Assembly (NCBI GenBank): GCA_947588355.1
Contig: CANPYI010000001.1
Span: 13,771-77,770 of the forward strand
Origin: an uncultured Clostridia bacterium
Lineage (GTDB): Bacteria > Bacillota > Clostridia > Christensenellales > UBA1242
Reading direction: 5' to 3'
Length of the DNA stretch: 64,000 bases
Shown here piece after piece: positions 5,932 to 63,571 of this stretch; the first letter of the stretch is position 1, and every line of letters begins with the position of its first letter. A program made the translations under genes and the position numbers. Under the pieces are notes generated by a model. The model did no database searches. It had not been told where the DNA came from and saw nothing but the letters and a program-made list of their open reading frames with translations.

Positions 5932-5984
5932 TTGCATACTACACCAGATATTGTGTATTATGACTACATAATACACAATATCTG
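5932..5984. repeat. Palindromic intergenic repeat, locus A
   Basis: TTGCATACTACAC-CAGATATTGTGTATTATG-acta-CATAATACACAATATCTG. Perfect 18-bp inverted repeat (5945-5962 / 5967-5984). Begins 1 nt after the mnmA stop and is followed by TTTTT. Confidence 0.85.
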
Positions 5985-6035
5985 TTTTTGCAATGACTTA
6001 AAATCAAAAAATATCTTTTTTCATAGAATGAAAAT

Positions 6036-7298
6036 ATGGAAACAAAACTTGTATTGACCGGCGGACAAAAATTGGCTGGATTGTTGGATATTGATGCATC
6101 AAAAAATGCTTTTTTGCCAATTCTTGCGGCTTGTGTTTTGTGTGACGGAGAAATTTTTTTTGAAAACTATGTCAATCTTACTGACATCTTTTGTATGCGT
6201 GAAATTTTAAGCACCCTGAATATTGACTCTCAACTTCTTGATGGCGGTCTTTACGTCAACGCAAAAAACGTCAAAAACAATAAAATTACACACGACATGA
6301 CTATGAAAATACGTGCCTCAATTTTTATTTTAGGTGCTTTGCTTTCAAGATTTCGAAGTGCCGTTATTGCCTATCCTGGCGGTTGCAACATAGGATCAAG
6401 GCCGATAGATTTACATATCAAAGGATTGAAAGGTTTGGGGGTCAGAGTTGTTGAAAGACACGGCTATATCTACTGTCACGGCGAAAACATGAAGGCGGGG
6501 GACGTTGTTCTTGATTTTCCTAGTGTTGGAGCAACGGAAAGCCTTGTTATGTGCGCCACATTGCTTAAGGGAAGAACGGTTTTGAAAAATGTCGCAAAAG
6601 AACCGGAGATTGTGAACTTGCAAGATTTTCTTAACAAAATGGGTGCAAAGATAAGTGGGGCTGGAAGTGACACAATTGTCATTGAAGGAGTGGAAAAACT
6701 TCATGGCACACAATTTAAAGTGATGGCAGACAGAATTTGGGCAGGGACGTTTCTTCTTGCCACTGCGACTTGTGGTGGTGATTTGACTTTGAAGGGCTTT
6801 AAACTTCAAGATAACGAAAGTTTGATTTCACTTTTGTCGCAAAGTGCTTGCAAAATCGACATTGATGGTGATATGATAAGACTGAGGGCCAATGGTCGCT
6901 TGCGGGCTGTTCCTGAAATCCAAACTTTGCCTTTTCCATATTTTCCAACTGATTTACAGTCTCAGATGATGGCTTTGCAAACTGTCTGCGATGGTGGGTG
7001 CATCTTGCAAGAAAATGTTTTTGAAAATCGCTTTGGTGTTGTGCCAGAATTGTGTAAGATGGGCGCAAAAATCAGCGTGAAAGGGCGTTCTGCCTATGTG
7101 CAAGGCGTTGAAAGATTGTACGGAGCGCATGTGTTTGCAACAGATCTTAGGGCAGGAGCGGCACTTGTGATTGCCGGTCTTAAGGCAGAGGGCTACACAA
7201 CGGTGCATAACGTGCATTACATAGACCGTGGCTATGATAGAATTGAAGAAAAATTCAAGATTCTTGGCGGAAACATCAAAAGAGTTGTAGAGGAGTAA
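6036..7298 (+). CDS. murA: UDP-N-acetylglucosamine 1-carboxyvinyltransferase
   Basis: 420 aa. Active-site region YPGGCNIGSRPIDLHIKGL, with MurA-type N and C termini. Confidence 0.9.
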   Translation: METKLVLTGGQKLAGLLDIDASKNAFLPILAACVLCDGEIFFENYVNLTDIFCMREILSTLNIDSQLLDGGLYVNAKNVKNNKITHDMTMKIRASIFILGALLSRFRSAVIAYPGGCNIGSRPIDLHIKGLKGLGVRVVERHGYIYCHGENMKAGDVVLDFPSVGATESLVMCATLLKGRTVLKNVAKEPEIVNLQDFLNKMGAKISGAGSDTIVIEGVEKLHGTQFKVMADRIWAGTFLLATATCGGDLTLKGFKLQDNESLISLLSQSACKIDIDGDMIRLRANGRLRAVPEIQTLPFPYFPTDLQSQMMALQTVCDGGCILQENVFENRFGVVPELCKMGAKISVKGRSAYVQGVERLYGAHVFATDLRAGAALVIAGLKAEGYTTVHNVHYIDRGYDRIEEKFKILGGNIKRVVEE

Positions 7299-7299
7299 A

Positions 7300-8259
7300 T
7301 TGAGTAAAAAACTTGTTGTATCACTTGTTTGTGTTTTTGTTGTTGTGGCAGTTGTGCTTATTCTTTTTTGGACTTTGTTTGCACTCTCTTCTGTGACTGT
7401 GAGTTTTCAATCAACGCTATCAAATTTGTCTCTTACAGAAGATGAAATTGTTGAAGCAGGACAATTCCATTATGGCAGTTGTGTGCTGTTTGACAACAAA
7501 AAAACGGCAATTGAAAAAATAAATGACAAGGCCAAAGAAGATGAAAGATTTGCCTACATCAGAGTGGTGAATATTGAAACGGTTTTTCCAAACAAGTATG
7601 TTGTTCATGTCGCGGAGCGCGAAAGACTTTTTGCCGTTCGAAATTCTGAGAATGTGTTTATTTGCGACCGTGATTTTAGAGTTTTGGATGTAAAGCAAGA
7701 TTTTGATGCAACATCTGAAGATTGTGTTTTGCTGAAAGGCTTGCAAATTGAAAATTCTGAAATCTCGGTCGGTGATTTTCTGCAGATAAAACAGACTTAT
7801 ATGTTGAAATTTTTCTCTGCATTTTTGCAAAACAACAGAACTTTGCGAGAGGTTGTTGGAAAATTTTCAGAGGCCATTCTCTCGACATATTCAGATGATT
7901 TTACGGGCGAACAATATCACCAAATTGAAATAAATTCTGCATCTGGGCAAAAGTTTTTGATAAAAAATCCTGATTTTGCTTTTGCAAACAAGGTGGCACT
8001 TTTATATTCTGTTGAAAGTGCTTTGTTTTCACAAAAAACCGACAACGACAACATTTTGGATTCTGACGGAAACCAAATCTTTTTGATTAAAAATGAGCAT
8101 GGCGAGTTTTTGCCATACACTCAGGGAAGCGATGAAGATAAAGTTTCTTTGACATATTCGCTTCTTGAAAAATGCCAGATAGTTGTGGACAACCTTACTT
8201 TGAGTGATTTTGTGGACAGAACTGAGGCAGATATTTTTTACTATTTGAAACAAATCTAA
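7300..8259 (+). CDS. FtsQ/DivIB-like cell division protein
   Basis: TTG start. Single N-terminal TM segment followed by a POTRA-like IRVVNIETVFPNKYVVHVAERERLFAV. Lies directly after murA. Confidence 0.55.
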   Translation: MSKKLVVSLVCVFVVVAVVLILFWTLFALSSVTVSFQSTLSNLSLTEDEIVEAGQFHYGSCVLFDNKKTAIEKINDKAKEDERFAYIRVVNIETVFPNKYVVHVAERERLFAVRNSENVFICDRDFRVLDVKQDFDATSEDCVLLKGLQIENSEISVGDFLQIKQTYMLKFFSAFLQNNRTLREVVGKFSEAILSTYSDDFTGEQYHQIEINSASGQKFLIKNPDFAFANKVALLYSVESALFSQKTDNDNILDSDGNQIFLIKNEHGEFLPYTQGSDEDKVSLTYSLLEKCQIVVDNLTLSDFVDRTEADIFYYLKQI

Positions 8260-8299
8260 GTTTTTGTGTATTTGTTTTTGAATTGGCAATAATTGCCTT

Positions 8300-9604
8300 A
8301 TGAGAAAAAAAGAATATGTAGAAAAAGCAAAAAACACGATTTTGAATCGGGTGAAATTTCATGCTCCAATCGTGTTTGATGACAACATAAACTACAAAGT
8401 TTTGTCATCATATGGCGTGGATATAAAAAAACCTATTTTCAAGTTTGAAAAAACTATGAATTTGTCGCTTTTAAAAGCATTTAAACTTGCTTTGCAAGAA
8501 GCCGATTTTAATCTTGTTGTTTCTTTGAAATCTTTGGGAAAGTTTGTCTCCAAGTTTTCAAAAAAGATTCCTTCTGCCATTTTTTATGACCCAGAGAACA
8601 CCCGAAATGCATTTTTGGAGACCGTCAACAAACTTAATATAAACTACTTTGCCTCCGGCAATTATAATCAAAAATTTCAAGAGAGATTTTTTAAAGTGAA
8701 TGGCCAAATCTTAAACCCCAGCTTTGAAGATTTTTTCCTTCGCTATGTTGGACTGATGAACGAAATTTTTGTTGATTTTAAGGAGTTTGTTTTGAATGGC
8801 TACAATTTTTTGTGTACCATCAAAAACAAAAGTGTATATCAAAAAAGAACGGAAATTGAACTGAACATACCTCTGCCAAAAGGATATTTCTATTTCAAAC
8901 AGATGCCAAAGGCCATTTTGATTGAAAACCTTTTGACGAAAGAAAAATTTTTCTTGAATTATACTTGCAAGAATGCAAAATTTTCTTTTTCGAGTGTAGA
9001 TGGATTGGAAAATTCAACATTTTGCTGTGTGAATGCAAAGGTCTCATTTTGTTTGAAACCAAACGAGCAAACTTTTGTTTTTTTTAATTTTGGCGAAAAT
9101 AAGTTTGCATTCAAAAATCTTAACGAAATAGAAAGATGGAGTAAATTATCTCATCACAAATCTTGCGAAATCTTCAATTTGCAAATAAAAACCAAAAATC
9201 CGCAATTTGATTATTTCTTTAACAAAACTTTGCCACAAAAGATTTGGATAAATTGGCTTAATGGTCAGCAAAATGCTGATTTAGAGCAAAAATATTTGGT
9301 TTACAAACGCTTGTTTGTTAAGGGTGCATTGCAAAACTATAGTTATGAAAAGATAACGAAATCACCATTTTTATTCCAAACAGATTGCAAAGAAAAAGAC
9401 AATGGAGTCAGTTTTGTAAACTTCAAGGAAATCGGGCTTAAAGAAATTGGCATTTTTAATGGAGAGTATTACAAAAAAATCTTTATTGTGAATGGTGAGC
9501 AAAAATTTTTGCGAGTGGGCAAGACATATTTCTACAACATAAATGGCATAACTGACCATTCGCTAAAGTCCAAAGAGCCGATTAGTCTGTGTTTTGGTCA
9601 ATAA
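8300..9604 (+). CDS. Hypothetical protein (434 aa, Asn/Phe/Lys-rich)
   Basis: Long uninterrupted ORF with no recognisable motif, signal peptide or TM segment. Confidence 0.5.
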   Translation: MRKKEYVEKAKNTILNRVKFHAPIVFDDNINYKVLSSYGVDIKKPIFKFEKTMNLSLLKAFKLALQEADFNLVVSLKSLGKFVSKFSKKIPSAIFYDPENTRNAFLETVNKLNINYFASGNYNQKFQERFFKVNGQILNPSFEDFFLRYVGLMNEIFVDFKEFVLNGYNFLCTIKNKSVYQKRTEIELNIPLPKGYFYFKQMPKAILIENLLTKEKFFLNYTCKNAKFSFSSVDGLENSTFCCVNAKVSFCLKPNEQTFVFFNFGENKFAFKNLNEIERWSKLSHHKSCEIFNLQIKTKNPQFDYFFNKTLPQKIWINWLNGQQNADLEQKYLVYKRLFVKGALQNYSYEKITKSPFLFQTDCKEKDNGVSFVNFKEIGLKEIGIFNGEYYKKIFIVNGEQKFLRVGKTYFYNINGITDHSLKSKEPISLCFGQ

Positions 9605-9630
9605 TTTTGTCAAAAAATATCGTGTTTTGA

Positions 9631-9662
9631 TTTGATATCATTTTGCATATCAAATTTTTTTT
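9631..9662 (+). terminator. Rho-independent terminator
   Basis: TTTGATAT-cattttgc-ATATCAAA followed by a T8 run. Confidence 0.55.
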
Positions 9663-9680
9663 GATATAATTTTTTTAGTT

Positions 9681-10964
9681 ATGGACGAGAAACGTATTCC
9701 TCTGGCAGAAAGAATGAGGGCGACAAGCCTTGAAGAATTCGTCGGACAGGAACATATTGTAGGCAAAAACAAATTGTTGTATCGTGCTATTTCCACAGGC
9801 AAAGTGGGAAGTTGTATTTTTTATGGGCCTCCGGGCACCGGAAAAACAACTTTGGCGGGGATTATCGCAAAACTTTTAAACGCAAATATAGAAAAATTGA
9901 ATGCTGTGTCCAGTGGAGTTTCGGACGCCAAAGCCGTTATAGAGCGAGCAAGGTCTCAAAAGCAGATGTTTGGCACGGACACATATTTGCTTCTCGATGA
10001 ATGTCATCGATGGAGTAAGGCGCAAAGTGATTGTGTTTTGCAAGCGATTGAAGAAGGAAGTATATATTTTATCGGCTCAACCACAGAAAATCCTTACACA
10101 AGCATGACACGGGCGATTGTGTCGCGTTGCAGTGTGTTTGAATTTAAAAAGATTTCTGAAAAAGATGTGTTGAAAGTCCTGAAACGTGCTTTGAGTGACA
10201 AAGAAAAAGGTTTGGGGCAGTTTAAAACTGATGTAAGTGAAGATGCTTTAAAATTTTTGGCATTTGCGTGCAACGGAGACGTCCGAACAGCACTCAATGC
10301 TTTGGAACTTGCTGTTCAGTCCACAAAAGTTGGCAAGGACAAAACAACGCATATTGATAAGGAGATTATGGCTGAATGCTTAAACAGAAGGCCTCTTTCC
10401 ATTGATGAAAATATGTATTATGATTATTTGTCGGCTTTTTGCAAAAGTTTGCGCGGAAGTGATACAGAGGCGGCACTTTACTATGCTTTCAGATTGATTA
10501 AAGCGGGGATTGACCCGCAGATTATTGCCAGAAGAATGATCGCTCATGCCTCGGAAGATGTTGGAATGGCAGACAGCAATGCGCTTTTGTTGGCTTGCTG
10601 TGCTTTGACATCATGCGAAAAGATAGGTGCGCCAGAGTGCTATTTGGCAATCTCACACGCGATAATTTATATTTGCGAAGCAGAAAAATCAAACAGTGTT
10701 GTTGTGGCCATGAACAGAGCGATTGAAGACGCAGAAAATGAACGCGAAGATATTGTGCCAAATCATTTGAAAAATCATCCAAGCACAAACAAAGATGGGC
10801 ATGGTGCGTACAAATATCCTCACGATTATGGTGGATATTGTGTACAACAGTACATGCCTGACAGTTTGAAAGACAGGGTGTATTATGAGCCGAGTGAAAA
10901 CGGCAGAGAGAAAAATTTGGTAAGAAAAAAGTTTTCAAAAAACGGATTTAAACCAAAAAAATAA
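9681..10964 (+). CDS. rarA: Replication-associated recombination protein A (AAA+ ATPase)
   Basis: Walker A GPPGTGKTTLA, Walker B LLLDECHRW, and a MgsA-type C-terminal domain (YYDYLSAFCKSLRGSD, HLKN...YKYPHDY). Confidence 0.9.
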   Translation: MDEKRIPLAERMRATSLEEFVGQEHIVGKNKLLYRAISTGKVGSCIFYGPPGTGKTTLAGIIAKLLNANIEKLNAVSSGVSDAKAVIERARSQKQMFGTDTYLLLDECHRWSKAQSDCVLQAIEEGSIYFIGSTTENPYTSMTRAIVSRCSVFEFKKISEKDVLKVLKRALSDKEKGLGQFKTDVSEDALKFLAFACNGDVRTALNALELAVQSTKVGKDKTTHIDKEIMAECLNRRPLSIDENMYYDYLSAFCKSLRGSDTEAALYYAFRLIKAGIDPQIIARRMIAHASEDVGMADSNALLLACCALTSCEKIGAPECYLAISHAIIYICEAEKSNSVVVAMNRAIEDAENEREDIVPNHLKNHPSTNKDGHGAYKYPHDYGGYCVQQYMPDSLKDRVYYEPSENGREKNLVRKKFSKNGFKPKK

Positions 10965-10971
10965 TATTATT

Positions 10972-11027
10972 TACACGATATATAGTGTATTATGCAACAT
11001 ACTACACTAAATATTGCTGTATTATGT
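10972..11027. repeat. Palindromic intergenic repeat, locus B
   Basis: TACACGATATATAGTGTATTATGCAACATACTACACTAAATATTGCTGTATTATG. Three units in alternating orientation. Ends 26 nt before the next start codon. Confidence 0.8.
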
Positions 11028-13764: not shown

Positions 13765-13775
13765 GGAGTGTTGAG

Positions 13776-25316: not shown

Positions 25317-25320
25317 ATAT

Positions 25321-27777: not shown

Positions 27778-27996
27778 ATGGAAATTTGGAATGAAATTGT
27801 CAGCATTGTTGTCAGCAATGGTGTGTTTGCAATTTTGTTTGTTTGGCTGTTTTTGTATATGTTGAAAGACAGCAGAAACAGAGAAACAAAATATCAGCAA
27901 ACAATAGAGCAGTTGACAACTCACTTGCAAACTTTGGAAGAGGTGAAAGATGATTTGACTGAAATCAAAGGTTTGCTTAAAGGGGACGACAAATGA
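27778..27996 (+). CDS. BhlA/UviB-family holin-like peptide
   Basis: MEIWNEIVSIVVSNGVFAILFVWLFLYMLKDSRNRETKY... closely follows the BhlA pattern: one TM segment, a K-S/D-R-E-K segment, then a coiled C terminus. Confidence 0.75.
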   Translation: MEIWNEIVSIVVSNGVFAILFVWLFLYMLKDSRNRETKYQQTIEQLTTHLQTLEEVKDDLTEIKGLLKGDDK

Positions 27997-28250
27997 AAAA
28001 CTTTTTTAAAAAAATTCGTTCGTACAGTTTTTGGGTAAGTCTTTCATCTGCCGTGATTATTCTTTTGAACGCACTTGGAAAGGCCTTTGGGTTTTCGATA
28101 CAAAATCAAGTAGTGGAGGATTGTATCATGGCAGTTGCTGGAGTTTTGGTTGTGCTTGGAATTGTGAGTATGAACAAGAAAGAATCCGACAAAAGCAATC
28201 AAGAAGATGTGCCAAATGAGGAAGAGAAAAAAGACAATCCAAATAAATAA
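27993..28250 (+). CDS. Phage holin (phi-LC3 / Phage_holin_1-like)
   Basis: SYSFWVSLSSAVIILLNALGKAFGF...AVAGVLVVLGIVS gives two TM segments with a charged tail. ATGA overlap with the bhlA-like gene. Confidence 0.65.
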   Translation: MKNFFKKIRSYSFWVSLSSAVIILLNALGKAFGFSIQNQVVEDCIMAVAGVLVVLGIVSMNKKESDKSNQEDVPNEEEKKDNPNK

Positions 28251-28285
28251 AAATACTAAAAAATGCATAAATATACACAATATAA

Positions 28286-28321
28286 TAGAACCGTGAAAAT
28301 TTTTGCGGTTCTATTTTTTTA
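28286..28321 (+). terminator. Rho-independent terminator closing the phage-like operon
   Basis: TAGAACCG-12 nt-CGGTTCTA followed by a T8 run. Confidence 0.7.
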
Positions 28322-33507: not shown

Positions 33508-33514
33508 TTTGCTA

Positions 33515-33740
33515 ACGACAATGACGGAAGAACATGGTTTTGGCTGTTTCACACAGAGAGTTTGGGGTGCTGAAATCCAAATTGAAACGCAAAACGAATT
33601 CGCTTCCAACAGTTGCGATTCTGAAGATTTTTTGTGTAGGAATTGCCGTGATGCTGCGTAAATGTGTCAATGAGGTGCGTTTTGCACGAAGTTAGGTGGT
33701 ATCACGAGTTAAATCGTCCTAATGTTTGGACGATTTTTTA
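33515..33740 (+). promoter_or_regulatory. T-box riboswitch leader (Phe)
   Basis: Stem I AGAGAG...GGTGC. UUC codon at 33599-33601 in GAAUUCG. T-box sequence GTTAGGTGGTATCACGAG (33690-33707). Terminator ATCGTCC-8 nt-GGACGAT followed by T6. Confidence 0.8.
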
Positions 33741-33774: not shown

Positions 33775-34794
33775 ATGAAAATACAACTTGAAGACATCTT
33801 GAAAAATGGTGTTGCAGAAATTGAAAGTGCAGATGATTTGAAGACGCTGGACGACTTGCGCATAAAATATCTTGGAAAATCGGGCGCTTTGACAACAATT
33901 TTGCGTGGTATGAAAGATGTTGCACCAGAACAACGTCGGGAGATAGGTAGTCTTGCAAATTCTGTTCGAGAAAATATCGAAAATGCGCTTTCACAAAAAC
34001 TTGCCGACCTTGAAAATGCCAAACTTTTGGCTGACATGGAAAAAGAAAAGGTGGATATTACTGAGCCGAGCAAGGGTGTCAAGCGAGGGGCATTGCATCC
34101 TTTAACGCGATTTAATAACAAATTTATGGAAATTTGCGTAGAGATGGGCTTTACTGTCATTCAAGGGCCAGAAGTTGAAACAGATTATTACAATTTTGAG
34201 GCATTGAATGTTCCAAAAAATCACCCTGCACGTGATATGCAAGACAGTTTTTACATCACAGATAATATTTTGATGCGTACTCAGACATCAAATATGCAGA
34301 TTCGTGCTATGGAAAAAATGAAGCCGCCATTTAAAGTTGTATGCCCGGGCAGAGTTTATCGCAACGATAGTGACAGTTCACATTCTCCAATATTTAATCA
34401 ATTTGAGGCACTTGTTGTTGATGAAAACATTGGTCTGAAAGATTTGATGATGATGATTAAAGAGATTTTGAAAAGACTTTATGGTGAAAATATTAAAATA
34501 AGAGTCAGACCATCATACTTTCCTTTCACTGAGCCGTCTATCGAGATTGATGCGACTTGTCAGATGTGTCACGGAAAAGGTTGCAATTTGTGCAAGGGGA
34601 CAGGCTTTTCAGAATTTTTCGCTGCGGGAGTTGTCAATCCAAAAGTTTTGGAAATGAGTGGAATAGACAGCAAAAAATACTCTGGTTTTGCTTTTGGGCC
34701 TGGCATTGATCGAAGTGTGATGGTTACAAACAAAATTCCAAACATAAAGTATTTGTTTAAAAATGATTTAAGATTTTTGAAGCAAATGAGATGA
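33775..34794 (+). CDS. pheS: Phenylalanine--tRNA ligase alpha subunit
   Basis: HPLTRF, NHPARDMQDSFY, FRxxxDxTHSPxF-type FNQFEALVVD, GFAFGPGIDR. ATG lies 6 nt after AAGGAG. Confidence 0.9.
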   Translation: MKIQLEDILKNGVAEIESADDLKTLDDLRIKYLGKSGALTTILRGMKDVAPEQRREIGSLANSVRENIENALSQKLADLENAKLLADMEKEKVDITEPSKGVKRGALHPLTRFNNKFMEICVEMGFTVIQGPEVETDYYNFEALNVPKNHPARDMQDSFYITDNILMRTQTSNMQIRAMEKMKPPFKVVCPGRVYRNDSDSSHSPIFNQFEALVVDENIGLKDLMMMIKEILKRLYGENIKIRVRPSYFPFTEPSIEIDATCQMCHGKGCNLCKGTGFSEFFAAGVVNPKVLEMSGIDSKKYSGFAFGPGIDRSVMVTNKIPNIKYLFKNDLRFLKQMR

Positions 34795-34851
34795 TACACC
34801 AAATAATGTGTAGTATTCAGCATAATACACCAAATATTGCGGTGATATGCA
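34795..34851. repeat. Palindromic intergenic repeat, locus C (fills the pheS-pheT spacer)
   Basis: TACACCAAATAATGTGTAGTATTCAGCATAATACACCAAATATTGCGGTGATATGCA. Begins 1 nt after the pheS stop and ends 18 nt before the pheT ATG. Confidence 0.85.
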
Positions 34852-37278: not shown

Positions 37279-37296
37279 CAAAAGTTGAGGTTGTAG

Positions 37297-39995: not shown

Positions 39996-40049
39996 AAAAT
40001 CGCTACATCGCAGTAATTTAGGCACATGTAGGCTTCAAGGAGTATGCAA

Positions 40050-40505
40050 ATGGCAAGGAGTTCAAGACAATCAAAAATTTTGGAACTTATCTCAACCAAA
40101 GAGATTGAAACTCAGGAAGAATTGGCACGAGAACTGAAAAATGCCAACTTTGAAATCACTCAAGCAACCATTTCAAGAGATATAAAAGAGTTGGGCTTGA
40201 CAAAGATTTTGTGTCCAAGCGGAAAATACAAGTACGCCATTTTGGGCAACGACCAACAACAAGTTGTCTCAAACAAGTACATAGGTATTTTTCGTGAATG
40301 CGTGATTTCTGTCAAACCTGCACTCAACTTGGCTGTTGTCCGAACTATCAAAGGCATGGCTCCGGGAGTTTGCTCTTTTATTGACAAACTTAATTTGACC
40401 GAACTTTTGGGTGCAACTTATGGAGATGACACCGTTTTACTTATTTTTCCAACCACAACTTGTGCTTCCGATGCCGTTGCAACCTTAAGTCAGATGATGA
40501 ACTAA
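40050..40505 (+). CDS. argR: Arginine repressor
   Basis: SRQSKILELISTKEIETQEELARELKNANFEITQATISRDIKELGL winged helix. C-terminal GDDTVLLI. ATG 40050 lies 7 nt after AAGGAG. Confidence 0.9.
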   Translation: MARSSRQSKILELISTKEIETQEELARELKNANFEITQATISRDIKELGLTKILCPSGKYKYAILGNDQQQVVSNKYIGIFRECVISVKPALNLAVVRTIKGMAPGVCSFIDKLNLTELLGATYGDDTVLLIFPTTTCASDAVATLSQMMN

Positions 40506-43060: not shown

Positions 43061-44701
43061 TTATTTTGCATAGCGTTTAAACAGAAACTTTTTGATGTAG
43101 TAGTTCACCGGAAAGGCGAGCAGCACGGCGTACACAGGAACAAGAATTGATGAAAGAAAACTTTTGATTATTTCGTACTGCATTCCACAACAAATGTTTA
43201 TCACAACAATCACAACTGTTGACAAAACGAAGACAGCCCAGTTTACTACTGCATTGTACATAAGTGAGGCTTTTTTGCTGACAAAAAGTTTGTGTCGTGC
43301 ATATGCCACAATTGTGTACAGCAAAAACAACAGTGGCACAGTGTAGAAAACAAAATTTGTGTTGGTGTTCAGCACTTTTGCCCATGCCAAAATTCCGCAC
43401 AGCACAGCACTGCCAACTCCGGCGAGTAACAAAAGCACCACAGAACTGATAAACACAAGGAAATTGGTGTTATGCACACGTTCCACGCCGGTTTTTTTGT
43501 ATTCTTTAAATTCGATTCCATGACCTTGATAATATTGTTTCAAAGTTGGATAGTCAACAAAACTTTGTGTGTCGCTGTAGTTGGTGCTTTCAACAATTTG
43601 AGTTTGCTTTGGTGCAGGTGCAACTTTCTGTTTTTCTTTTTTATGCTCAAAAATCTTTGACATCATATCCTTGTAAGTTGGCTCAAGGTTTGTGTCGCGT
43701 TTTGGAGCAGGAAGATTTTCAGCGGTAACGCTTATTTCGATATTAGGCGGGGTGATTTTGCGTTGAACAGGAATTTCGTTTTCTTGATATCTTGAAGTGA
43801 TAAATACGGCGTCATCAACCGGCGCACTTTCTTGCGTTTCTTCTTTTGCAACTTCCTCAATTTTGTTGAAGTTTTGTTGCTTGATCTGATTTGTGTCTTC
43901 TTGATAGTAATTTTGTCTGGCGTCAAGCATAGACTTTTTGAGTTGCTCTATGCGTTCCTTTTGAATCTCACGATCTTCGTCATTTTCGTATTCGACCGCC
44001 ATTTCAATCTGATTTTCTGCAAAACTCTTGCGTTTGCGGTATTTTTTTAAATCATTTGATGTGTCATACAAACGCTTGTTTTGTTCTTCTTGAGCGGCAG
44101 TCAAACGGTCTGTTTCGCTCAACAACACTGCATCATCAGATTTTTCTGAGGCAGGTTGTTGTTCCAGAATAGACTGATAATATTCCATTTTTTCGTTTTC
44201 AACCGGCTGTGTTTCAGTTTCCTCTTGCAAAGGCATGGAAAAGATATCCAACTGATTTTCTGCAACGTCATTTTCTTTTTGAGAAGTATCTTCGGTCTTT
44301 TGAAGCTTTGGCTCTTCCACAAGGTTGAACAAACTGTCTTGCCAACCCACAACTGCGCTTTCAGTTTTTTCCTCCTCTTTTGATGGAGAGGTTTCTGTCT
44401 CCAAATCATCAAAGGTGGCATCTTTAAATTCAGTCTCCAATGTTTCCAACTCTTTTCGGCCTTGATTGGTAATGGTGTAGTAGTGACGTTTTCCACCTAA
44501 ATCACTTGTTTCCCAATAAGATGAGGAGACAAGCCCTTTCTTCTCCATTCGGGTGAGTGCCGAATAAAGAGTAGGCTTTTTTAAGATGTAATTTCCGCCT
44601 GTACGGGTGGAGATATGCTCTATGATTTCCAAACCATACTTTGAGCCGCTTGAAAGACTGTCCAAAATCAGATAAGAGACTATATTTGTGCTGTTTGCCA
44701 T
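43061..44701 (-). CDS. PadR-family winged-helix regulator fused to a long acidic linker and a 4-TM membrane domain
   Basis: N terminus YLILDSLSSGSKYGLEIIEHIS...LKKPTLYSALTRMEKKGLV...KRHYYTITNQGRKEL is PadR-like. An E/Q/K-rich linker of about 300 aa follows. Four C-terminal hydrophobic helices. Confidence 0.65.
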   Translation of the reverse strand: MANSTNIVSYLILDSLSSGSKYGLEIIEHISTRTGGNYILKKPTLYSALTRMEKKGLVSSSYWETSDLGGKRHYYTITNQGRKELETLETEFKDATFDDLETETSPSKEEEKTESAVVGWQDSLFNLVEEPKLQKTEDTSQKENDVAENQLDIFSMPLQEETETQPVENEKMEYYQSILEQQPASEKSDDAVLLSETDRLTAAQEEQNKRLYDTSNDLKKYRKRKSFAENQIEMAVEYENDEDREIQKERIEQLKKSMLDARQNYYQEDTNQIKQQNFNKIEEVAKEETQESAPVDDAVFITSRYQENEIPVQRKITPPNIEISVTAENLPAPKRDTNLEPTYKDMMSKIFEHKKEKQKVAPAPKQTQIVESTNYSDTQSFVDYPTLKQYYQGHGIEFKEYKKTGVERVHNTNFLVFISSVVLLLLAGVGSAVLCGILAWAKVLNTNTNFVFYTVPLLFLLYTIVAYARHKLFVSKKASLMYNAVVNWAVFVLSTVVIVVINICCGMQYEIIKSFLSSILVPVYAVLLAFPVNYYIKKFLFKRYAK

Positions 44702-44762
44702 ACAAAACTCCTATATTCTGAAAATATTTTATATAACAAAAAAAGATTTGTCAAACAAAATG

Positions 44763-44847
44763 AAGTATTATGCAAAAAAATTGCATAATACACCAATTTT
44801 TGTGGTGATACGCACGCAAAATACACTATATATTGTGGTGTTATGCA
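44763..44847. repeat. Palindromic intergenic repeat, locus D (five units)
   Basis: AAGTATTATGCAAAAAAATTGCATAATACACCAATTTTTGTGGTGATACGCACGCAAAATACACTATATATTGTGGTGTTATGCA. Lies in the divergent spacer between the PadR-like gene and the DUF45 gene. Confidence 0.85.
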
Positions 44848-46745: not shown

Positions 46746-46772
46746 AAAATCCGCTTTGTGGCGGATTTTTTT
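46744..46772. terminator. Bidirectional terminator
   Basis: AAAAAATCCGC-tttgtg-GCGGATTTTTTT between convergent spoIVB and the recombinase gene. Confidence 0.75.
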
Positions 46773-47802
46773 AATGCAAATGTACTTTTCCTGCAACAGC
46801 CTTTCGCATATCTTCGTTGATTGCGGCGTAATGTTTTTTTGTGGTGTTCACATCTTTGTGGCCAAGCACATCTGCCACGATATATATGTCATGTGTTTCT
46901 CGATACAAATTTGTGCCAAAAGTTGAGCGCAGTTTGTGAGGAGAAATTTTTTTTAGGGGTGCACTTTCTTTGGCAAACTTTTTTACAAGATTTTCCACAG
47001 CGCGAACGCATATTCTTTTGTTTTGCAAGGAGACAAACATGGCGTGTTCATTTGGGTCGAGTCCTAGAGTTTTGCGTTTTTCCAGCCATTGTTCAAGTGC
47101 TGTTTTCACTTCGAGTGGAAAGTACAAAATAGTTTGATTTCCACCTTTTCTGGTCACTTTGAATGCATTTTGCGAAAAGTCAAAATCTTCGACATTCAAG
47201 CCTACAAGTTCTGAAATACGAATTCCTGTGCCAAGAAACAGTGTGACTATGGCATTGTCACGGATTTGTGTGTTTTTGTTGTAGTTTTTTTGTCTTTGCG
47301 TGAAGGTTGCAGGGGACTGAACTGCGTCCAGCATGCGCTCCACTTCATCTTTTTCCAAACGTATAATTTCTTTGTTGTGCTGTTTTGGAGTTTTCACTTT
47401 GCTTGCAACATTGCTTGAAATCATGTCATGATTGAACAAATACTTAAAAAAACTTCTCACGCTGGCAAGTTTTCGGGCTTTGCCACGCTCATCGTTGCGC
47501 TCTTGATGTCCATTGATATCATAAAAGGAAAGATAAGAAAGATAGTTTTCTATGTGACGTGCTTGCAGGCTGTCAAGGTCTTGAAGCGTAATATCAATTT
47601 TTGGCTTTTTGACAACAAACCTTTCCAGATAATCAAAAAAAACTGAAAGGTCCATGGCATAGTTTACTCTTGTGAGTGACGACGTGTTGTTTTCTATTCC
47701 CGTGAAAAAATCAAAGCAATATTCTGGCAAACTTTCCAGATAAGAGCCAATTTTTTTCATATTTTTGAAATCTCGTTGTTTATAATAAGACATGTTCTCC
47801 AT
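46771..47802 (-). CDS. Tyrosine recombinase (XerC/XerD family)
   Basis: TGIRISELVGL, HKLRSTFGTNLY, LGHKDVNTTKKHY (R..HxxR..Y catalytic set). Start could be the 4th codon. Confidence 0.8.
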   Translation of the reverse strand: MENMSYYKQRDFKNMKKIGSYLESLPEYCFDFFTGIENNTSSLTRVNYAMDLSVFFDYLERFVVKKPKIDITLQDLDSLQARHIENYLSYLSFYDINGHQERNDERGKARKLASVRSFFKYLFNHDMISSNVASKVKTPKQHNKEIIRLEKDEVERMLDAVQSPATFTQRQKNYNKNTQIRDNAIVTLFLGTGIRISELVGLNVEDFDFSQNAFKVTRKGGNQTILYFPLEVKTALEQWLEKRKTLGLDPNEHAMFVSLQNKRICVRAVENLVKKFAKESAPLKKISPHKLRSTFGTNLYRETHDIYIVADVLGHKDVNTTKKHYAAINEDMRKAVAGKVHLH

Positions 47803-49892: not shown

Positions 49893-49894
49893 TC

Positions 49895-49947
49895 GATATT
49901 TTGTGTATTATGTTGCATACTACACACATTATGTTGTGTATTATGCA
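49895..49947. repeat. Palindromic intergenic repeat, locus E
   Basis: GATATTTTGTGTATTATGTTGCATACTACACACATTATGTTGTGTATTATGCA. Lies between the clpP stop and the clpX RBS, ending 14 nt before the ATG. Confidence 0.85.
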
Positions 49948-55387: not shown

Positions 55388-55390
55388 TCA

Positions 55391-55431
55391 ACATCTTGTA
55401 GGTATTATGCAACATAATACACCAAATAGTG
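55391..55431. repeat. Palindromic intergenic repeat, locus F
   Basis: ACATCTTGTAGGTATTATGCAACATAATACACCAAATAGTG. Begins 3 nt after the yifB-like stop. Confidence 0.8.
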
Positions 55432-55451
55432 ATTTAAGGAGTTGAAAGGTT

Positions 55452-58657: not shown

Positions 58658-58658
58658 T

Positions 58659-58686
58659 TTGACTTTGTGCATTTTGATGATATAAT
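58659..58686 (+). promoter_or_regulatory. Sigma-A-type promoter of hslVU
   Basis: TTGACT, 16 nt spacer, TATAAT. Confidence 0.6.
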
Positions 58687-58703
58687 TGAAAAAGGAGACT
58701 TAC

Positions 58704-59243
58704 ATGGAAAATCTTTTCAGAGGCACAACTATTTGTGCAGTAAAACGTGACGGAAAAATTGCTGTGGCAGGTGATGGGCAAGTTACGATGCAAAACAGCA
58801 TTATATTCAAAAACAACGCGCGTAAAGTTCGCAGAATTTACAACAACAGTGTTGTGGTCGGTTTTGCAGGCTCTGTTGCCGACGCTTTTTCGCTTTCAGA
58901 ACGTTTTGAAGGTATGCTCAACAAATATGCCGGCAATCTTATGAGAAGTGCTGTCGAACTTGCTCAAACTTGGCGAGAAGACAAAGTTGGCAGACAACTT
59001 GATGCCATGATGATTGTTGCTGACAAGGAACAAATTCTTATTTTGGACGGGGCAGGAAATGTTATCGAGCCTCAAGACGGAATTTGTGCGATAGGCTCTG
59101 GCGGAAACTATGCTCTTGCTGCAGCACGAGCGTTAATTCAAAACACAAAATACTCAGCAAAGGATATTGCCTTCAAAGCACTTAAGATTGCAAGTGAAAT
59201 TTGTGTGTTTACAAATGAAAATATTATTGTAGAACAACTTTAA
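58704..59243 (+). CDS. hslV: ATP-dependent protease subunit HslV (ClpQ)
   Basis: [18 protein letters not shown] with N-terminal Thr nucleophile context, [27 protein letters not shown] lies after AAAGGAG. Confidence 0.9.
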
Positions 59244-59261
59244 TCGGTTTAAGGAGAAAGT

Positions 59262-60557
59262 ATGAACTATACACCAAAACAAATCGTAACTGAACTTGAT
59301 AAATATATTGTTGGGCAAGCCAAAGCAAAACGTGCAGTCGCTATTGCGTTGCGCAACAGATATCGTCGCAGTCAACTGCCAGCAGATTCGCGTGAAGAAA
59401 TCACACCGAAAAACATTGTTATGAGCGGTCCAACGGGTGTTGGAAAAACGGAAATTGCCAGAAGACTTGCCAAACTTGTTGGCTCGCCATTTGTCAAGGT
59501 TGAGGCCACAAAATACACCGAAGTAGGCTATGTTGGACGCGATGTTGAAAGCATGGTGCGTGACCTTGTTGAAGTTGCAGTACGCATGGTCAAAGACAAA
59601 AAGAAAAAAGAAGTGGAAAACAAAGTTATGCCTATCGTTGAGGCGAAACTTGTTGACGCACTCTTCCAAAATCGTCGCGTAACAGAAGTGGAAGTGAACA
59701 GAGATGCACTTTTGGAAGAACTTCGCAGCGGAAAGTGTGAAGAAGAAAATGTTGAGGTTGTTGTGCTTGAAGCAGCAAAACCTATGATGGCTTTTGGCGG
59801 AAATGAGATCAGTCTCGGCTCTATGTTTGAAGGTCTCACACCTCCAAAACACAAGAAAAAGAAATTGAGTGTTCGTCATGCCAGAGAAGCACTTTTGCAA
59901 GAAGAAAGTGACAAGATAATTGATATGGACAATGTCAATGAGGAGGCTATCACTCTTGCGGAAGAACAGGGCATAATCTTTATTGACGAAATAGACAAGA
60001 TTATTGGAAAAAGCCAAGCAACAAACAGTGCAGACGTTTCCCGTGAAGGTGTTCAACGCGATATTTTGCCTATTGTGGAAGGAAGTACTGTTCCAACAAA
60101 ATACGGCAATGTGAAAACCGACTTTATTCTTTTTATTGCAGCAGGGGCATTCCACGTTGCAAAGATGGAAGATATGATTCCGGAACTGCAAGGTCGTTTT
60201 CCTATCAGGGTTGAACTTGAAAGTTTGACCAAAGAAGACTTTAAGAAAATTTTGAGTACACCAAAAAATGCTGTGACAGTTCAGTATTCAAATTTGCTTA
60301 AAGTTGACAATATAAATTTGATTTTCAAAGATGACGCACTTGATGAAATTGCTGAAATGGCTGCACGCGAAAATGAAACTAGCGAGGATTTGGGTGCAAG
60401 ACGTTTGCATACAATCATGGAAAGCGTTTTGGAAGATGTTTCGTTCAATGCCACGGGGCAACATCCTATGCTTGATGTTGTGATTGACAAAACTTATGTG
60501 CAAAATGTCTTTAAAGATAAAACCGAAAAATTTGATTTGAAAAAGTATGTGCTGTAA
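59262..60557 (+). CDS. hslU: ATP-dependent protease ATPase subunit HslU (ClpY)
   Basis: TPKQIVTELDKYIVGQ, Walker A GPTGVGKTEIARRLA, IIFIDEIDKI, GARRLHTIME. Confidence 0.95.
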   Translation: MNYTPKQIVTELDKYIVGQAKAKRAVAIALRNRYRRSQLPADSREEITPKNIVMSGPTGVGKTEIARRLAKLVGSPFVKVEATKYTEVGYVGRDVESMVRDLVEVAVRMVKDKKKKEVENKVMPIVEAKLVDALFQNRRVTEVEVNRDALLEELRSGKCEEENVEVVVLEAAKPMMAFGGNEISLGSMFEGLTPPKHKKKKLSVRHAREALLQEESDKIIDMDNVNEEAITLAEEQGIIFIDEIDKIIGKSQATNSADVSREGVQRDILPIVEGSTVPTKYGNVKTDFILFIAAGAFHVAKMEDMIPELQGRFPIRVELESLTKEDFKKILSTPKNAVTVQYSNLLKVDNINLIFKDDALDEIAEMAARENETSEDLGARRLHTIMESVLEDVSFNATGQHPMLDVVIDKTYVQNVFKDKTEKFDLKKYVL

Positions 60558-60558
60558 T

Positions 60559-60622
60559 CAATATATTGTTGGTGATATGCAAACTTTATATATGCATAAT
60601 ACCATATATTGTGTAGTATGCA
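60559..60622. repeat. Palindromic intergenic repeat, locus G
   Basis: CAATATATTGTTGGTGATATGCAAACTTTATATATGCATAATACCATATATTGTGTAGTATGCA. Begins 1 nt after the hslU stop and ends 12 nt before the next ATG. Confidence 0.85.
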
Positions 60623-60634
60623 AATGAGAAAATT

Positions 60635-61339
60635 ATGTGGAATGACAGAACAAAACTTTTGATTGGAAAAGATGGCGTGCAAACCTTGTCAAAAAGTAAG
60701 GTTGCAGTTGTTGGCGTTGGCGGAGTTGGCGGATATGTTGCTTATTTGCTTTGTCGTGCCGGTGTTGAAAATCTGACGCTTGTTGATTGTGACAAAGTTG
60801 ACACTACAAACATCAACAGACAAATAGTTGCCAATCAAAACACTGTAGGGCAACTTAAAGTTGATGTTTTGAAAAAAATGCTGTTTGAAATAAATCCAGA
60901 TTGCAAAGTTTGTACAGTTCCTGAGCGTTTGTGTCAGGCAAATATATCAAAAATCATCAATAAAGATTTTGACTATGTTGTCGATGCTATTGACAGTTTG
61001 CAAGACAAAATTGATTTGATTTGCTTTTGCAAACAGAATTCCATTCCTGTTGTTTCAGCCATGGGAGCAGGAAATCGCATAAATGTGCCAAACTTTTTTG
61101 TGACAGATATATACAAAACTTCACACGATGGACTAGCAAAAGTTTTGCGTAAAAAGTTGAAAGAACGTGACGTGAAAAGTTTGGACGTTGTGACAACCGA
61201 TGTGCAAGTTATGAAAATTGAGAAAAATCAAACAGAAAATGTTGGCAAACGCACGGTTGGAAGCATTTCATATTTTCCGGCGATGTGCGGTTGCGTTATT
61301 GCAGGTTTTGTGATTGAAAAGTTATTAAAACGTATTTAA
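60635..61339 (+). CDS. tcdA: tRNA threonylcarbamoyladenosine dehydratase (ThiF/E1-like)
   Basis: VAVVGVGGVGGYVAYLLCRAGVENLTLVDCDKVDTTNINRQ. About 234 aa, typical for TcdA/CsdL. Confidence 0.75.
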   Translation: MWNDRTKLLIGKDGVQTLSKSKVAVVGVGGVGGYVAYLLCRAGVENLTLVDCDKVDTTNINRQIVANQNTVGQLKVDVLKKMLFEINPDCKVCTVPERLCQANISKIINKDFDYVVDAIDSLQDKIDLICFCKQNSIPVVSAMGAGNRINVPNFFVTDIYKTSHDGLAKVLRKKLKERDVKSLDVVTTDVQVMKIEKNQTENVGKRTVGSISYFPAMCGCVIAGFVIEKLLKRI

Positions 61340-61352
61340 ATAGGAGGAAAAG

Positions 61353-61661
61353 ATGGAAATAATAACTGAAAAACAATTCAAAGAAAAAACAAAAAGTGGA
61401 GTTGTGCTTGTGGACTTTTTTGCAACTTGGTGCGGGCCTTGCAAGATGCAGGCTCCAGTTTTGGAAAAAGTGCAAGAGGAGTTGGGAAAGCAGGTGCAAA
61501 TTTTCAAAGTTGATGTTGATGAAGACGAAAAACTTGCTCGCAGTTTTGGTGTTATGAGCATTCCAACAATGATTTTGTTTGTTGATGGCCAGCAAAAAGA
61601 AAAACACGTTGGACTTTGGTCAAAAGATGATGTTTCTGATACTATCAAAAAATATCTCTAA
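61353..61661 (+). CDS. trxA: Thioredoxin
   Basis: VDFFATWCGPCKM active site, SIPTMILF. Confidence 0.95.
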   Translation: MEIITEKQFKEKTKSGVVLVDFFATWCGPCKMQAPVLEKVQEELGKQVQIFKVDVDEDEKLARSFGVMSIPTMILFVDGQQKEKHVGLWSKDDVSDTIKKYL

Positions 61662-61714
61662 AATATGTCAGATGATATTTTGCGAATAGATATTTTTCTT
61701 ATATTATCAATATT

Positions 61715-61752
61715 AAAAAAAACAGGTTATAATAAACTTGTTTTTATTTTTT
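61715..61752 (+). terminator. Rho-independent terminator after trxA
   Basis: AAACAGGTT-ataata-AACTTGTTT (one G-U pair) followed by a T-rich tail. Confidence 0.5.
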
Positions 61753-61754
61753 TA

Positions 61755-61783
61755 TTGACAACGCTTGTTTTTGGTGATAAAAT
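61755..61783 (+). promoter_or_regulatory. nifSU promoter with extended -10
   Basis: TTGACA, 17 nt spacer, TAAAAT, with TGA immediately upstream of the -10. Confidence 0.65.
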
Positions 61784-61810
61784 ATAGACGAAGTGTTAAA
61801 AGGAAGGTTT

Positions 61811-63004
61811 ATGGAACGAAAAATATATCTTGACAATGCATCAACAACATATGTTTCAAACGAAGTTTTAAACGAAATGTTGCCTTGTTTCAACTCTCTT
61901 TATGGAAATGCCGGCTCTTTGCATAGTTTCGGACGTGATGCAGTTGCAATTCTTGATCGTGCACGCGACCGCGTTAAAACTGCCATAAATGCTGCCAAAG
62001 CAAATGAAATTTACTTCACTAGCGGCGGAACAGAGGCTGACAACTGGGCACTTATCGGTGTTGCTCATGCCAATGCCAACAAAGGAAAACACATCATCAC
62101 AAGCAAAATAGAGCATCATGCGGTGCTTCATGCTTGTGAGCAACTTGAAAAAGAGGGCTTTGAAATCACTTATTTGCCGGTGGACAAGCACGGGCTTGTG
62201 GACATGGCAGAACTTTTGCATGCCATTCGCAAAGACACTATATTGATTTCTATTATGACTGTCAATAATGAGGTTGGCACAATTCAAAATGTCAAAGCAA
62301 TTGCAAAAATTGCACATGATTACAAAATTCTGTTCCATACAGATGCCGTTCAAGCAATAGGTCACGTGCATATAGATGTTCAGGACATGGAAATTGATCT
62401 TATGTCAATGTCGGCTCACAAAATCCACGGGCCAAAGGGCGTTGGCGCTTTGTATATCAAAAATGGCGTCAGAATTGATCCAATCACTTATGGCGGAATC
62501 AGTCAGGAACGTGGCAAGCGTTCTGGAACAGAGAATATTCCTGGAATCGCAGGTTTTGGAAAAGCAATGGAAATTGCCACACGAAACATCGCAGTAAACG
62601 AGAAAAAACTCAAAACAATTCGTGATTACTTCTTGGAAAAACTTGCAGAGAAAGTGCAATATTTTCAAGTGAACGGCCATCCTCAACAAAAATCAAATGC
62701 CATTGCAAATGTTTCTTTTTATGGCGTTGAAGGCGAAAGCATCTTGATGCTTTTGGACCTTGCGGGGATTTGCGTTTCAACGGCCTCTGCTTGCACATCA
62801 AAGTCGCTTTTGCCATCTCACGTGCTTCAAGCAATGGGTGTTCCGGACGAAATCGCACAAGGCTCGATAAGATTTTCTTTTGGAACAAATATTTCAAAAT
62901 CGGATATTGATTATGTGACGGACGAAGTGCAAAAAGTTGTTGCAAGACTTCGAGAAATATCACCAATTCAACCAGAAAAGGAGGGTAAAAAAAATGTACA
63001 GTAA
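61811..63004 (+). CDS. nifS: Cysteine desulfurase NifS
   Basis: IYLDNASTT, SMSAHKIHGPKGVGALYI (PLP Lys), SASACTS active-site Cys. ATG lies after GGAAGG. Confidence 0.9.
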   Translation: MERKIYLDNASTTYVSNEVLNEMLPCFNSLYGNAGSLHSFGRDAVAILDRARDRVKTAINAAKANEIYFTSGGTEADNWALIGVAHANANKGKHIITSKIEHHAVLHACEQLEKEGFEITYLPVDKHGLVDMAELLHAIRKDTILISIMTVNNEVGTIQNVKAIAKIAHDYKILFHTDAVQAIGHVHIDVQDMEIDLMSMSAHKIHGPKGVGALYIKNGVRIDPITYGGISQERGKRSGTENIPGIAGFGKAMEIATRNIAVNEKKLKTIRDYFLEKLAEKVQYFQVNGHPQQKSNAIANVSFYGVEGESILMLLDLAGICVSTASACTSKSLLPSHVLQAMGVPDEIAQGSIRFSFGTNISKSDIDYVTDEVQKVVARLREISPIQPEKEGKKNVQ

Positions 63005-63407
63005 AACAGTGATCGACAGATTTCAAAATCCACATAATGCTGGCACTTTGCGTGGCGCAAATGCTGTTGGCGAAGTTGGAAATGCTGCTTGTGGCGACAT
63101 CATGAAAATGTATCTTAAAATCAACGACAACGGCATTATCGAAAGTGCCAAATTTAAGACTTTTGGTTGCTGCGCTGCAATTGCTTCAACAGATATGGCT
63201 TGTGACCTTATAAAAGGCAAAACAATTGATGAAGCATTGAAAGTGACCAACAAACAAGTGTTGGATTTGCTTGGCGAACTTCCGCCACACAAGATACATT
63301 GCAGTATTTTGGCAGAAGAAAGCATTAAAGCCGCAATCGAAGATTACTACAAAAAGAAAGAAAAAGAAATCAAAAAGTCTGTCAAAAAACCAATCAAATA
63401 TGTGTAA
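62994..63407 (+). CDS. nifU: Fe-S cluster assembly scaffold NifU/IscU-like
   Basis: MYSKTVIDRFQNPHNAG, GNAACGD, FKTFGCCAAIAS, HCSIL. ATG lies after GGAGGG. 11-nt overlap with nifS. Confidence 0.9.
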   Translation: MYSKTVIDRFQNPHNAGTLRGANAVGEVGNAACGDIMKMYLKINDNGIIESAKFKTFGCCAAIASTDMACDLIKGKTIDEALKVTNKQVLDLLGELPPHKIHCSILAEESIKAAIEDYYKKKEKEIKKSVKKPIKYV

Positions 63408-63430
63408 ACACAAGATTTGAGATTGAATTA

Positions 63431-63468
63431 AAAAAATCTTATCAAATAAAAAGGATAAGATTTTTTTT
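63431..63468 (+). terminator. Rho-independent terminator after nifU
   Basis: AAAAAATCTTATC-10 nt-GATAAGATTTTTTTT. Confidence 0.7.
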
Positions 63469-63538
63469 ATAATTAAGTAGTATGCAAACTTTTAAAAACA
63501 AATGAGAAAACTTTCAATTTTTGAAAGATTGTGAAAAA

Positions 63539-63571
63539 TTGCATAATACAACATTTTGTAAGTATTATGCA
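63539..63571. repeat. Palindromic intergenic repeat, locus H (convergent spacer)
   Basis: TTGCATAATACAACATTTTGTAAGTATTATGCA, plus a half unit AAGTAGTATGCA at 63475-63486. Lies between the 3' ends of nifU (+) and tgt (-). Confidence 0.8.

Follow-up and report, generated by a model that had tools for sequence, protein, structure and literature searches.

The stretch of DNA considered here (the window: 64,000 nucleotides, positions 13,771 to 77,770 of contig CANPYI010000001.1 in assembly GCA_947588355.1) belongs to an uncultured member of the Clostridia and carries, in the spacers between its genes, eight arrays of a short palindromic repeat. Its G+C content is 35-41%, the nearest named PheS protein is that of Candidatus Caccovivens (88% identity), and its exact ClpP protein was found on short metagenome contigs from its own species and nowhere else. 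A preliminary description of this DNA had reported repeats at eight loci and compared them with repetitive extragenic palindromic (REP) sequences and bacterial interspersed mosaic elements (BIMEs). All eight loci are present where it placed them, and both the alternation of inverted copies and their confinement to spacers hold up. Each array contains 2-5 units in alternating orientation (patterns ><>, <><, <>, >< and ><><>), and the roughly 26 units first estimated compare well with our count of ~23 by matrix plus ~4 long-variant or partial units. The arrays, lettered A to H, and one outlying unit are as follows.

Array A, 5932..5986, between mnmA and murA: < > <, with units at 5933-5954 (-), 5943-5964 (+) and 5965-5986 (-).
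Array B, 10972..11027, after rarA and before an unknown gene: a partial < unit, > at 10975-10996, < at 10996-11017 and a long-variant > unit ending at 11027.
Array C, 34792..34851, between pheS and pheT: a partial < unit, > at 34798-34819, < at 34819-34840 and a long-variant > unit at 34830-34851.
Array D, 44753..44847, between a divergent PadR-like gene (-) and a ygjP-like gene (+): five units, > < > < >.
Array E, 49893..49947, between clpP and clpX: > < >.
Array F, 55390..55432, between yifB and dprA: > <, with a degenerate third unit reaching the dprA ribosome-binding site.
Array G, 60560..60622, between hslU and tcdA: a long-variant > unit and, after an 11-nt gap, < >.
Array H, 63470..63571, between the convergent genes nifU (+) and a tgt-like gene (-): a lone > unit at 63470-63486 and a tail-to-tail palindrome at 63540-63571.
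Degenerate unit, 28264..28283: a single poor unit with 5 mismatches.

The motif is strongly enriched over chance, as the claim of a dispersed family had implied. A 22-nt weight matrix (consensus ACAATATATGGTGTATTATGCA), built iteratively from the window and related genomes and applied with a cut-off of at least 12 bits per unit, detects 28 units in the window, compared with 0.8 after block shuffling. The 17-mer ATATTGTGTATTATGCA, allowing up to 3 mismatches, has 13 matches against 0.30 expected, a number that none of 100 shuffles reached, and every one of the 12 occurrences of the core 10-mer GTAKTATGCA in the window falls within the eight loci. The building block is a unit of ~21 nt, CAwTATATkGTGTAKTATGCA, whose most conserved positions in the matrix lie in its head (G-T-x-x-T-A-T-G-C); a long-variant head, GGTGWTATGCA, is also present. 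Neighbouring units are joined tail-to-tail in 44 cases and head-to-head in 36, and only 5 neighbours share an orientation. A tail-to-tail pair forms the palindrome TGCATAMTACAC..GTGTAKTATGCA, which spans 30-35 bp (mostly 32-33) and whose units have a common 10-bp AT-rich palindromic core; head-to-head units abut at TATGCA-TGCATA, and in 25 of 36 such pairs their gap lies between -1 and +1. A further variant head, in which TATTCA/TGAATA replaces TATGCA/TGCATA, recurs at 34803-34819 of the window and in related loci (L039 1236-1290, L129, L131 and L025) and predominates among the arrays of one Caccovivens genome that were displayed, a hint that the motif drifts by lineage.

Several of these comparisons include orthologous, and hence non-independent, arrays, and two finer patterns should be read with this in mind. 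At the K position, head-to-head partners match in only 15% of pairs where 42% would be expected, as if sub-types alternated in the manner of Y and Z REPs. We do not rely on this pattern, since 7 of the 27 pairs come from orthologous pheS-pheT arrays and the window by itself does not display it. At unit position 9, gene-sense units have T and antisense units G (Fisher p = 0.04, uncorrected for shared ancestry), a difference that is unproven.

All high-scoring units in the window are intergenic and multi-unit arrays, there as throughout the first set of loci analysed, occur only between genes; the few single matches within genes score 13-17 bits and are chance-like. Arrays occupy about a quarter of the longer gene spacers. 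Seven of the 34 spacers of at least 40 nt in the window's gene calls contain one and the remainder contain none, except for one lone weak match; array H is missing from this list because the gene calls place a probably spurious open reading frame (ORF) across it. Much as first described, the arrays start 0-10 nt past the upstream stop codon and end 8-54 nt short of the next start. Among 46 arrays with classified spacers (genes in the related loci being crude longest-ORF calls), co-directional, convergent and divergent spacers are represented 32:8:6, and thus no spacer type is excluded. Two window arrays have exact words of at most 17 nt in common, the longest being usually 10-14 nt, so no window array is a recent copy of another.

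The family extends well beyond the window. Using the PheS protein to pull relatives from metagenomes, a sampling blind to the repeats, we retrieved 11 close relatives (78-91% identity) and 26 distant ones (39-46%). In 9 of the 11 close relatives (142 kb) we found 13 intergenic multi-unit arrays, ~1 array per 11 kb, and 13 of 14 multi-unit arrays among the PheS-retrieved relatives lay outside called ORFs, whereas the distant PheS loci had 0 multi-unit arrays in 272 kb. The family is therefore clade-wide, centred around Candidatus Caccovivens. A pattern scan covering one genome per species points the same way: among the matches listed are dozens of Clostridia loci with clear arrays, from dozens of related metagenome-assembled genomes, although the matches also include many chance hits in unrelated phyla and no genome-wide count can be derived from them. 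The array-bearing genomes among these matches were assembled from rabbit, ruminant, mouse and human gut samples.

Many arrays occupy the same site in different species. The pheS-pheT spacer contains one in 17 species, including all 11 of the close relatives retrieved by protein alone, and these arrays keep one layout of a unit, an inverted unit and usually a third unit, whose arm is lost in L127 and L131. An array lies upstream of the PadR-like gene in seven species (the window and six others), even though the PadR-like protein is only 47-50% identical between distant clade members. Further recurrent sites are downstream of mnmA, between hslU and tcdA (L093 also has this array), downstream of obg and upstream of a fabG-like gene. 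Several arrays, from L041, L045, L092, L118, L124 and L083, share a conserved region with a tRNA gene cluster or a ribosomal protein L10 leader, and this region is another orthologous array site. Within the species, array E is identical across six contigs save for one base in L005. Comparison of sequences thus establishes a family that exists, is intergenic and clade-wide, and has many of its arrays at orthologous sites.

The pheS-pheT arrays also indicate what has been kept. Among 15 species, pairwise identity is 83% in the head-to-head core, 73% in the tail and centre and 63% in the third head, compared with 47% at four-fold sites of pheS (for which saturation is 34%) and 45-49% in the spacer beside the array. 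In the alignment of 17 species neither hairpin has a compensatory change, at most two cells being changed on both sides; paired cells amount to 78% and 74% in the two hairpins against shuffled means of 80% and 75%; and at the K/M position of the stem 11 of 17 sequences are unpaired in the head-to-head hairpin and 13 of 17 in the tail-to-tail hairpin. In non-orthologous arrays the paired arms resemble each other no more than random unit pairs do. The core is conserved without covariation, and the constraint therefore falls on the sequence of the unit rather than on base pairing. We read these alignments as establishing that the units are under purifying selection and that hairpin pairing is not the conserved property. 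It had been suggested that each locus can fold into hairpins. Folding is indeed possible, and it is strong at loci A, D and H (z of -3.8 to -5.9 against shuffles), but at loci F and G (z = -0.3 and -0.7) it is no stronger than in shuffled sequence, and folding energies are about equal on both strands.

We consider it about an even chance that the arrays are an old, vertically inherited intergenic palindromic family with REP/BIME-like organization, specific to a clade of gut Clostridia, and that they serve as protein-recognition sites at the level of DNA. We envision a scenario in which a sequence-specific protein would recognize the arrays and be bound along a lattice of roughly 32 bp, or three helical turns. 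A mobilising enzyme, none of which came to light in the loci searched, probably spread the family long ago, and the present copies are largely static; effects on transcripts, from hairpins after stop codons to occasional terminator use at A and H, would be secondary and locus-dependent. REP and BIME elements are themselves bound by the RAYT transposase, by IHF or by gyrase. The lack of covariation, together with two loci that fold like shuffles, moves weight from RNA hairpins to a protein-recognition site. Of the alternatives originally listed, a REP-like role in mRNA stability or termination accordingly loses ground and protein recognition gains it, since it is the unit sequence that is conserved. 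In how its elements work the family is probably REP/BIME-like; we write "-like" rather than claim formal membership of the REP class because abundant identical 16-mers were not seen and the search for RAYT was weak.

Several points weigh against recognition by a protein. A binding protein for the arrays was not identified, and no RAYT/IS200-type (Y1 transposase) gene was seen in the DNA examined, which includes only ~0.5 Mb of the clade spread over ~40 genomes; the phmmer search, with IS200 TnpA and E. coli RAYT sequences as queries, was a weak test that covered ~1 Mb of loci, only ~0.3 Mb of it from the clade. In two related species (L049 and L054) the clpP-clpX spacer is only 10-25 nt long and has no array, and relatives have an array just after pheT (L126 13520-13573; L129 8884-8938; L132 9029-9081; L025 4508-4539; L085 4550-4613) where the window has only an 18-nt spacer (37279-37296). 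Sites have thus been gained and lost, and not every array can be essential. The spacing of units varies by +/-1 bp, both head-to-head and tail-to-tail, and hairpin loops accommodate such variation more readily than does a rigid dimer bound to duplex DNA. The conservation could in principle be due to gene conversion between copies instead of selection at each site. Finally, the promoters that flank array D, like all promoters discussed here, are consensus predictions and not mapped transcription starts.

Transcribed arrays could instead work as RNA, their hairpins serving as 3' stabilisers, RNase sites or partial terminators, or stalling ribosomes after stop codons. mRNA-level roles of such kinds are on record for E. 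coli REP hairpins. We regard this as unlikely. Most co-directional arrays begin 0-3 nt past a stop codon inside likely operons such as pheST and clpPX, folding at three loci (A, D and H) is much stronger than in shuffles, and there is a T run behind the hairpin of A and an A5/T5 pair around the palindrome of H. These features have to be set against the 17 orthologous arrays in which no compensatory change has occurred and an internal mismatch persists, the shuffle-like folding of F and G, and the similar energies of the two strands. Divergent promoters are predicted to flank array D, TTGACA-17-TAAAAT serving the PadR-like gene and TTGAAA-16-TATACT with an upstream TG the ygjP-like gene, and the DNA of the array is therefore probably untranscribed from either. 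Between pheS and pheT a strong terminator would be harmful. In two places termination is provided for separately: a canonical bidirectional intrinsic terminator (an A run, an atcttatc...gataagat stem and a T run) lies at 63430-63470, directly after nifU and distinct from array H, and the hslU array of L093 is likewise preceded by its own canonical terminator. Promoters of the sigma-70 type and intrinsic terminators were scanned for in 20 kb of the window with five arrays inside; there, a G+C-rich stem with a T run was flagged only for the first hairpin of array D, and most arrays have no T run. In an Rfam scan no family reached its gathering score at an array, and the sole overlap at E <= 5 was Bacilli-1 at the 3' edge of array G, with 22 bits against a gathering score of 55.6.

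A second alternative concerns mobility and starts from the anatomy of the arrays. Like REP/BIME elements and the REPINs of Pseudomonas, these are imperfect palindromes of ~32-35 bp (30-35 bp by our measure, with 8 arrays in the 64-kb window and 13 in the 142 kb from relatives), extragenic and grouped in alternating clusters. They share with REP/BIME elements a position that is often right after stop codons, long vertical persistence, and a primary sequence that is kept as a stem mismatch persists. In contrast to REP palindromes, which are discrete and separated by linkers, the units interlock through ATAT and TGCA junctions; the copies are degenerate about their consensus, the stems are AT-rich, the host is an uncultured Clostridia clade, divergent spacers are not avoided and RAYT was not found in what was a weak phmmer search. 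The arrays also recall miniature inverted-repeat transposable elements (MITEs) such as RUP, BOX and Correia/NEMIS, which are dispersed and intergenic, have inverted 5'-TG...CA-3' termini and can sit within operons. Those elements exceed 100 bp, whereas each palindrome here has 32-33 bp and no internal sequence, and we see no recognizable target-site duplication, no near-identical copies and sites that are conserved across species. Inverted termini are present, and differences in the presence or absence of an array were seen only between distant species.

From such likenesses it might be argued that the arrays are currently mobile REPIN or MITE elements, copied by a RAYT-like or other transposase encoded elsewhere, and that their apparent conservation reflects replacement or homogenization. 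The REP/BIME-like anatomy and the differences in occupancy at clpP-clpX and after pheT fit this proposal, as does the description of REPIN-RAYT systems as inherited vertically and persisting for millions of years. We nonetheless think it quite unlikely. The 16-mers of REP families associated with RAYT groups 2 and 3 occur 57-140 times per replicon (PMC5581495), whereas abundant identical 16-mers are not seen in the window and its arrays include no near-identical copies. Inspection by eye of isolated palindromes found no consistent target-site direct repeat, no ORF for a Y1 transposase was found in the loci examined (again a weak test), and the same sites are filled across species whose silent sites are nearly saturated.

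A third possibility gives the binding protein a name. The centre of the 32-bp palindromes (n = 25) reads ACACnATATATwGTGT, a sequence equal to the consensus of the NrdR box, and the arrays could be operators for NrdR or a protein of NrdR-like specificity, with the 16-bp palindrome centres as boxes ~three turns apart, as part of an enlarged regulon or as titration sites. In the NrdR box, C4, A6, A8, T9, T11 and G13 are reported to be highly conserved, and two boxes are needed, separated by an unconserved linker of 15-16 bp (31-32 bp spacing) or, alternatively, 26-27 bp (PMC13584703). All six of these positions are present in 17 of the 25 palindromes, and in the pheS-pheT alignment C4, A6, A8 and G13 are invariant in 17 species, with positions 5, 7 and 10 varying; the box core survives even in L127 and L131, which have lost the arm of the third unit. 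The published regular expression for box pairs (PMC13584703) matches arrays B, C, D, E and H, with 14 pairs in the window against 6.7 in shuffles. The two NrdR-like cores of array B are 31 bp apart, and those of array G are 43 bp apart, which corresponds to the alternative 26-27 bp linker. The pattern of conserved and variable positions, and boxes every ~three helical turns, thus resemble NrdR operators.

Other features of the arrays fit such operators poorly, and we hold it improbable that the arrays make up a lattice of NrdR-type boxes across the genome, with a conserved palindromic linker between boxes. Core spacings are 31 bp (4 cases), 32 (1), 33 (8), 34 (5) and 43 (3), so that they peak at 33-34 bp (13 cases) and only 5 lie at 31-32 bp. 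Although two boxes are needed, 29 of 64 arrays have a single core by the regular expression and 3 have none, and the linker, TATGCA-TGCATA, is here the most conserved part. There are dozens to hundreds of sites rather than one per nrd operon, and their neighbours are unrelated housekeeping genes (mnmA, murA, rarA, pheST, clpPX, yifB, dprA, hslU, tcdA, nifU, obg and proS). No ribonucleotide reductase-like ORF was found in the loci examined, or next to any array, and no nrdR gene was found in the clade DNA examined. The only nrdR that we found lies on an unrelated Gastranaerophilales contig (L116), where a pattern match ~1.1 kb from the gene is therefore a chance match. The regular expression is also very permissive in AT-rich DNA, with 412 single matches in the window. 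Were the lattice real, NrdR or a protein of the same specificity would bind a couple of hundred intergenic sites, which would amount to an enlarged regulon, a buffer that titrates the repressor, or a nucleoid-organizing use of the ribonucleotide reductase repressor, and a REP-like family would have arisen from, or converged on, a transcription-factor operator.

Portable promoters had been raised from the outset. Whether for sigma-A (TTGCAT-N18-TAKTAT in each tail-to-tail palindrome) or for a sporulation sigma factor (a CATA-type -10 in TGCATAMTAC), they are by now very improbable: the last unit of most window arrays does face the downstream gene, stopping 8-54 nt short of the start codon, and TAKTAT agrees with a -10 hexamer in its T, A and final T, with TTGCAT 18-19 bp upstream in tail-to-tail pairs, but arrays rarely reach 9 of 12 consensus positions and only three such weak matches overlap arrays in the 20 kb scanned, canonical TTGACA-17-TATAAT promoters are clearly used elsewhere, including on both sides of (not within) array D, the implied spacer of 18-19 bp is suboptimal and variable, a palindrome would fire antisense into the upstream gene, 8 of the 46 classified arrays, H included, lie between convergent genes, and the conserved part of the pheS-pheT array is a head-to-head pair that lacks a -35/-10 pair in L127 and L131. 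Known sporulation motifs (the sigE-like ATATT-N14-CATAC and the sigG/sigK-like CATA motifs) match only in part and leave the palindromic arrangement unexplained.

Other candidates were set aside more directly. A tail-to-tail palindrome does look like dif and the loxP/FRT sites of tyrosine recombinases, with two ~13-bp inverted arms, an AT-rich centre of 6-8 bp and 32-33 bp in all. The dif site has two 11-bp arms (..ATAA / TTAT..) around a 6-bp centre and normally occurs once per replicon. In the arrays ATAA and TTAT do not flank a 6-bp centre; tail-to-tail pairs hold them 18-19 bp from each other, head-to-head pairs have them in the wrong order, and there are eight loci in 64 kb, so that the Xer likeness fails on arm spacing, as the preliminary description had itself suspected. 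Hundreds of recombining palindromes would, moreover, scramble the chromosome. The window does encode a 343-amino-acid Xer-type tyrosine recombinase (46771-47802, -) between spoIVB and tig, whose best matches are XerS, XerC and XerA, all under the curated cut-offs; arrays in the window are not associated with this gene. In L054 the Xer-type gene (3852-4877, +) is flipped relative to the same neighbours and an array follows immediately after it. The ORF at 40044-40505 encodes an arginine repressor, but the units form no ARG box (TGAAT-N4-ATTCA), and ArgR was rejected as the binder. So was the PadR-like neighbour of array D, whose acidic linker and C-terminal membrane segments make it unlikely to bind chromosome-wide and whose operator type, ATGT-N8-ACAT, is unmatched. 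A role as DNA uptake sequences was rejected because units are absent from coding DNA, and BLAST searches of phages and plasmids with the consensus array returned only chance-level AT-rich matches (E >= 0.03).

The individual loci have features of their own. The last two units of array A form the perfect 18-bp stem reported initially, followed by TTTTT. The partial < unit of array C overlaps the pheS stop codon. Upstream of pheS, at 33512-33724 (+), lies a T-box leader (Rfam RF00230, 93.5 bits), so the pheST operon has a standard tRNA-sensing leader besides its internal array. The gene to the left of array D (43061-44701, -) encodes a protein of 546 amino acids with an N-terminal PadR winged helix, a long acidic low-complexity linker and C-terminal hydrophobic segments that seem to span the membrane, and the protein would be a membrane-anchored PadR-type regulator; the gene is conserved across the clade and has arrays upstream, including the largest seen. 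Array H does lie between convergent 3' ends, as first described, and its palindrome is bordered by A5 and T5. A 79-codon ORF (63521-63760, +) that overlaps it is almost certainly spurious, an example of how arrays can seed false small-gene calls. A hairpin-forming sequence resembling ttcgcaaaagacaggttttgcgaa adjoins array H at 63598-63630, and similar sequences lie at about 6421-6450 of L067 and about 5795-5825 of L078; this sequence, conserved in three species, may terminate transcription of the convergent tgt-like gene. The degenerate copy reported at 28264-28283 does correspond to one unit, but a poor one that is only a possible relic and whose membership of the family is uncertain. Just upstream is an ORF for 85 amino acids (27993-28250, +) with weak Pfam matches to phage holins, and a strong terminator-like hairpin lies nearby at 28290-28320.

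REP-type repeats have been studied mainly in Proteobacteria, and a comparable family is now seen in an uncultured clade of gut Clostridia. The comparative evidence is unusually clear, in that spacers stay occupied across species whose silent sites are near saturation, and the family offers a tractable case for the old question of why such repeats are kept. The proposal that the arrays are recognition sites predicts a sequence-specific binding protein, and if the resemblance to NrdR boxes were functional it would link a repeat family to the sensing of nucleotide pools. In practical terms the arrays are likely to break assemblies or to give rise to erroneous calls of small ORFs, and the motif provides a compact marker for this clade in metagenomes.

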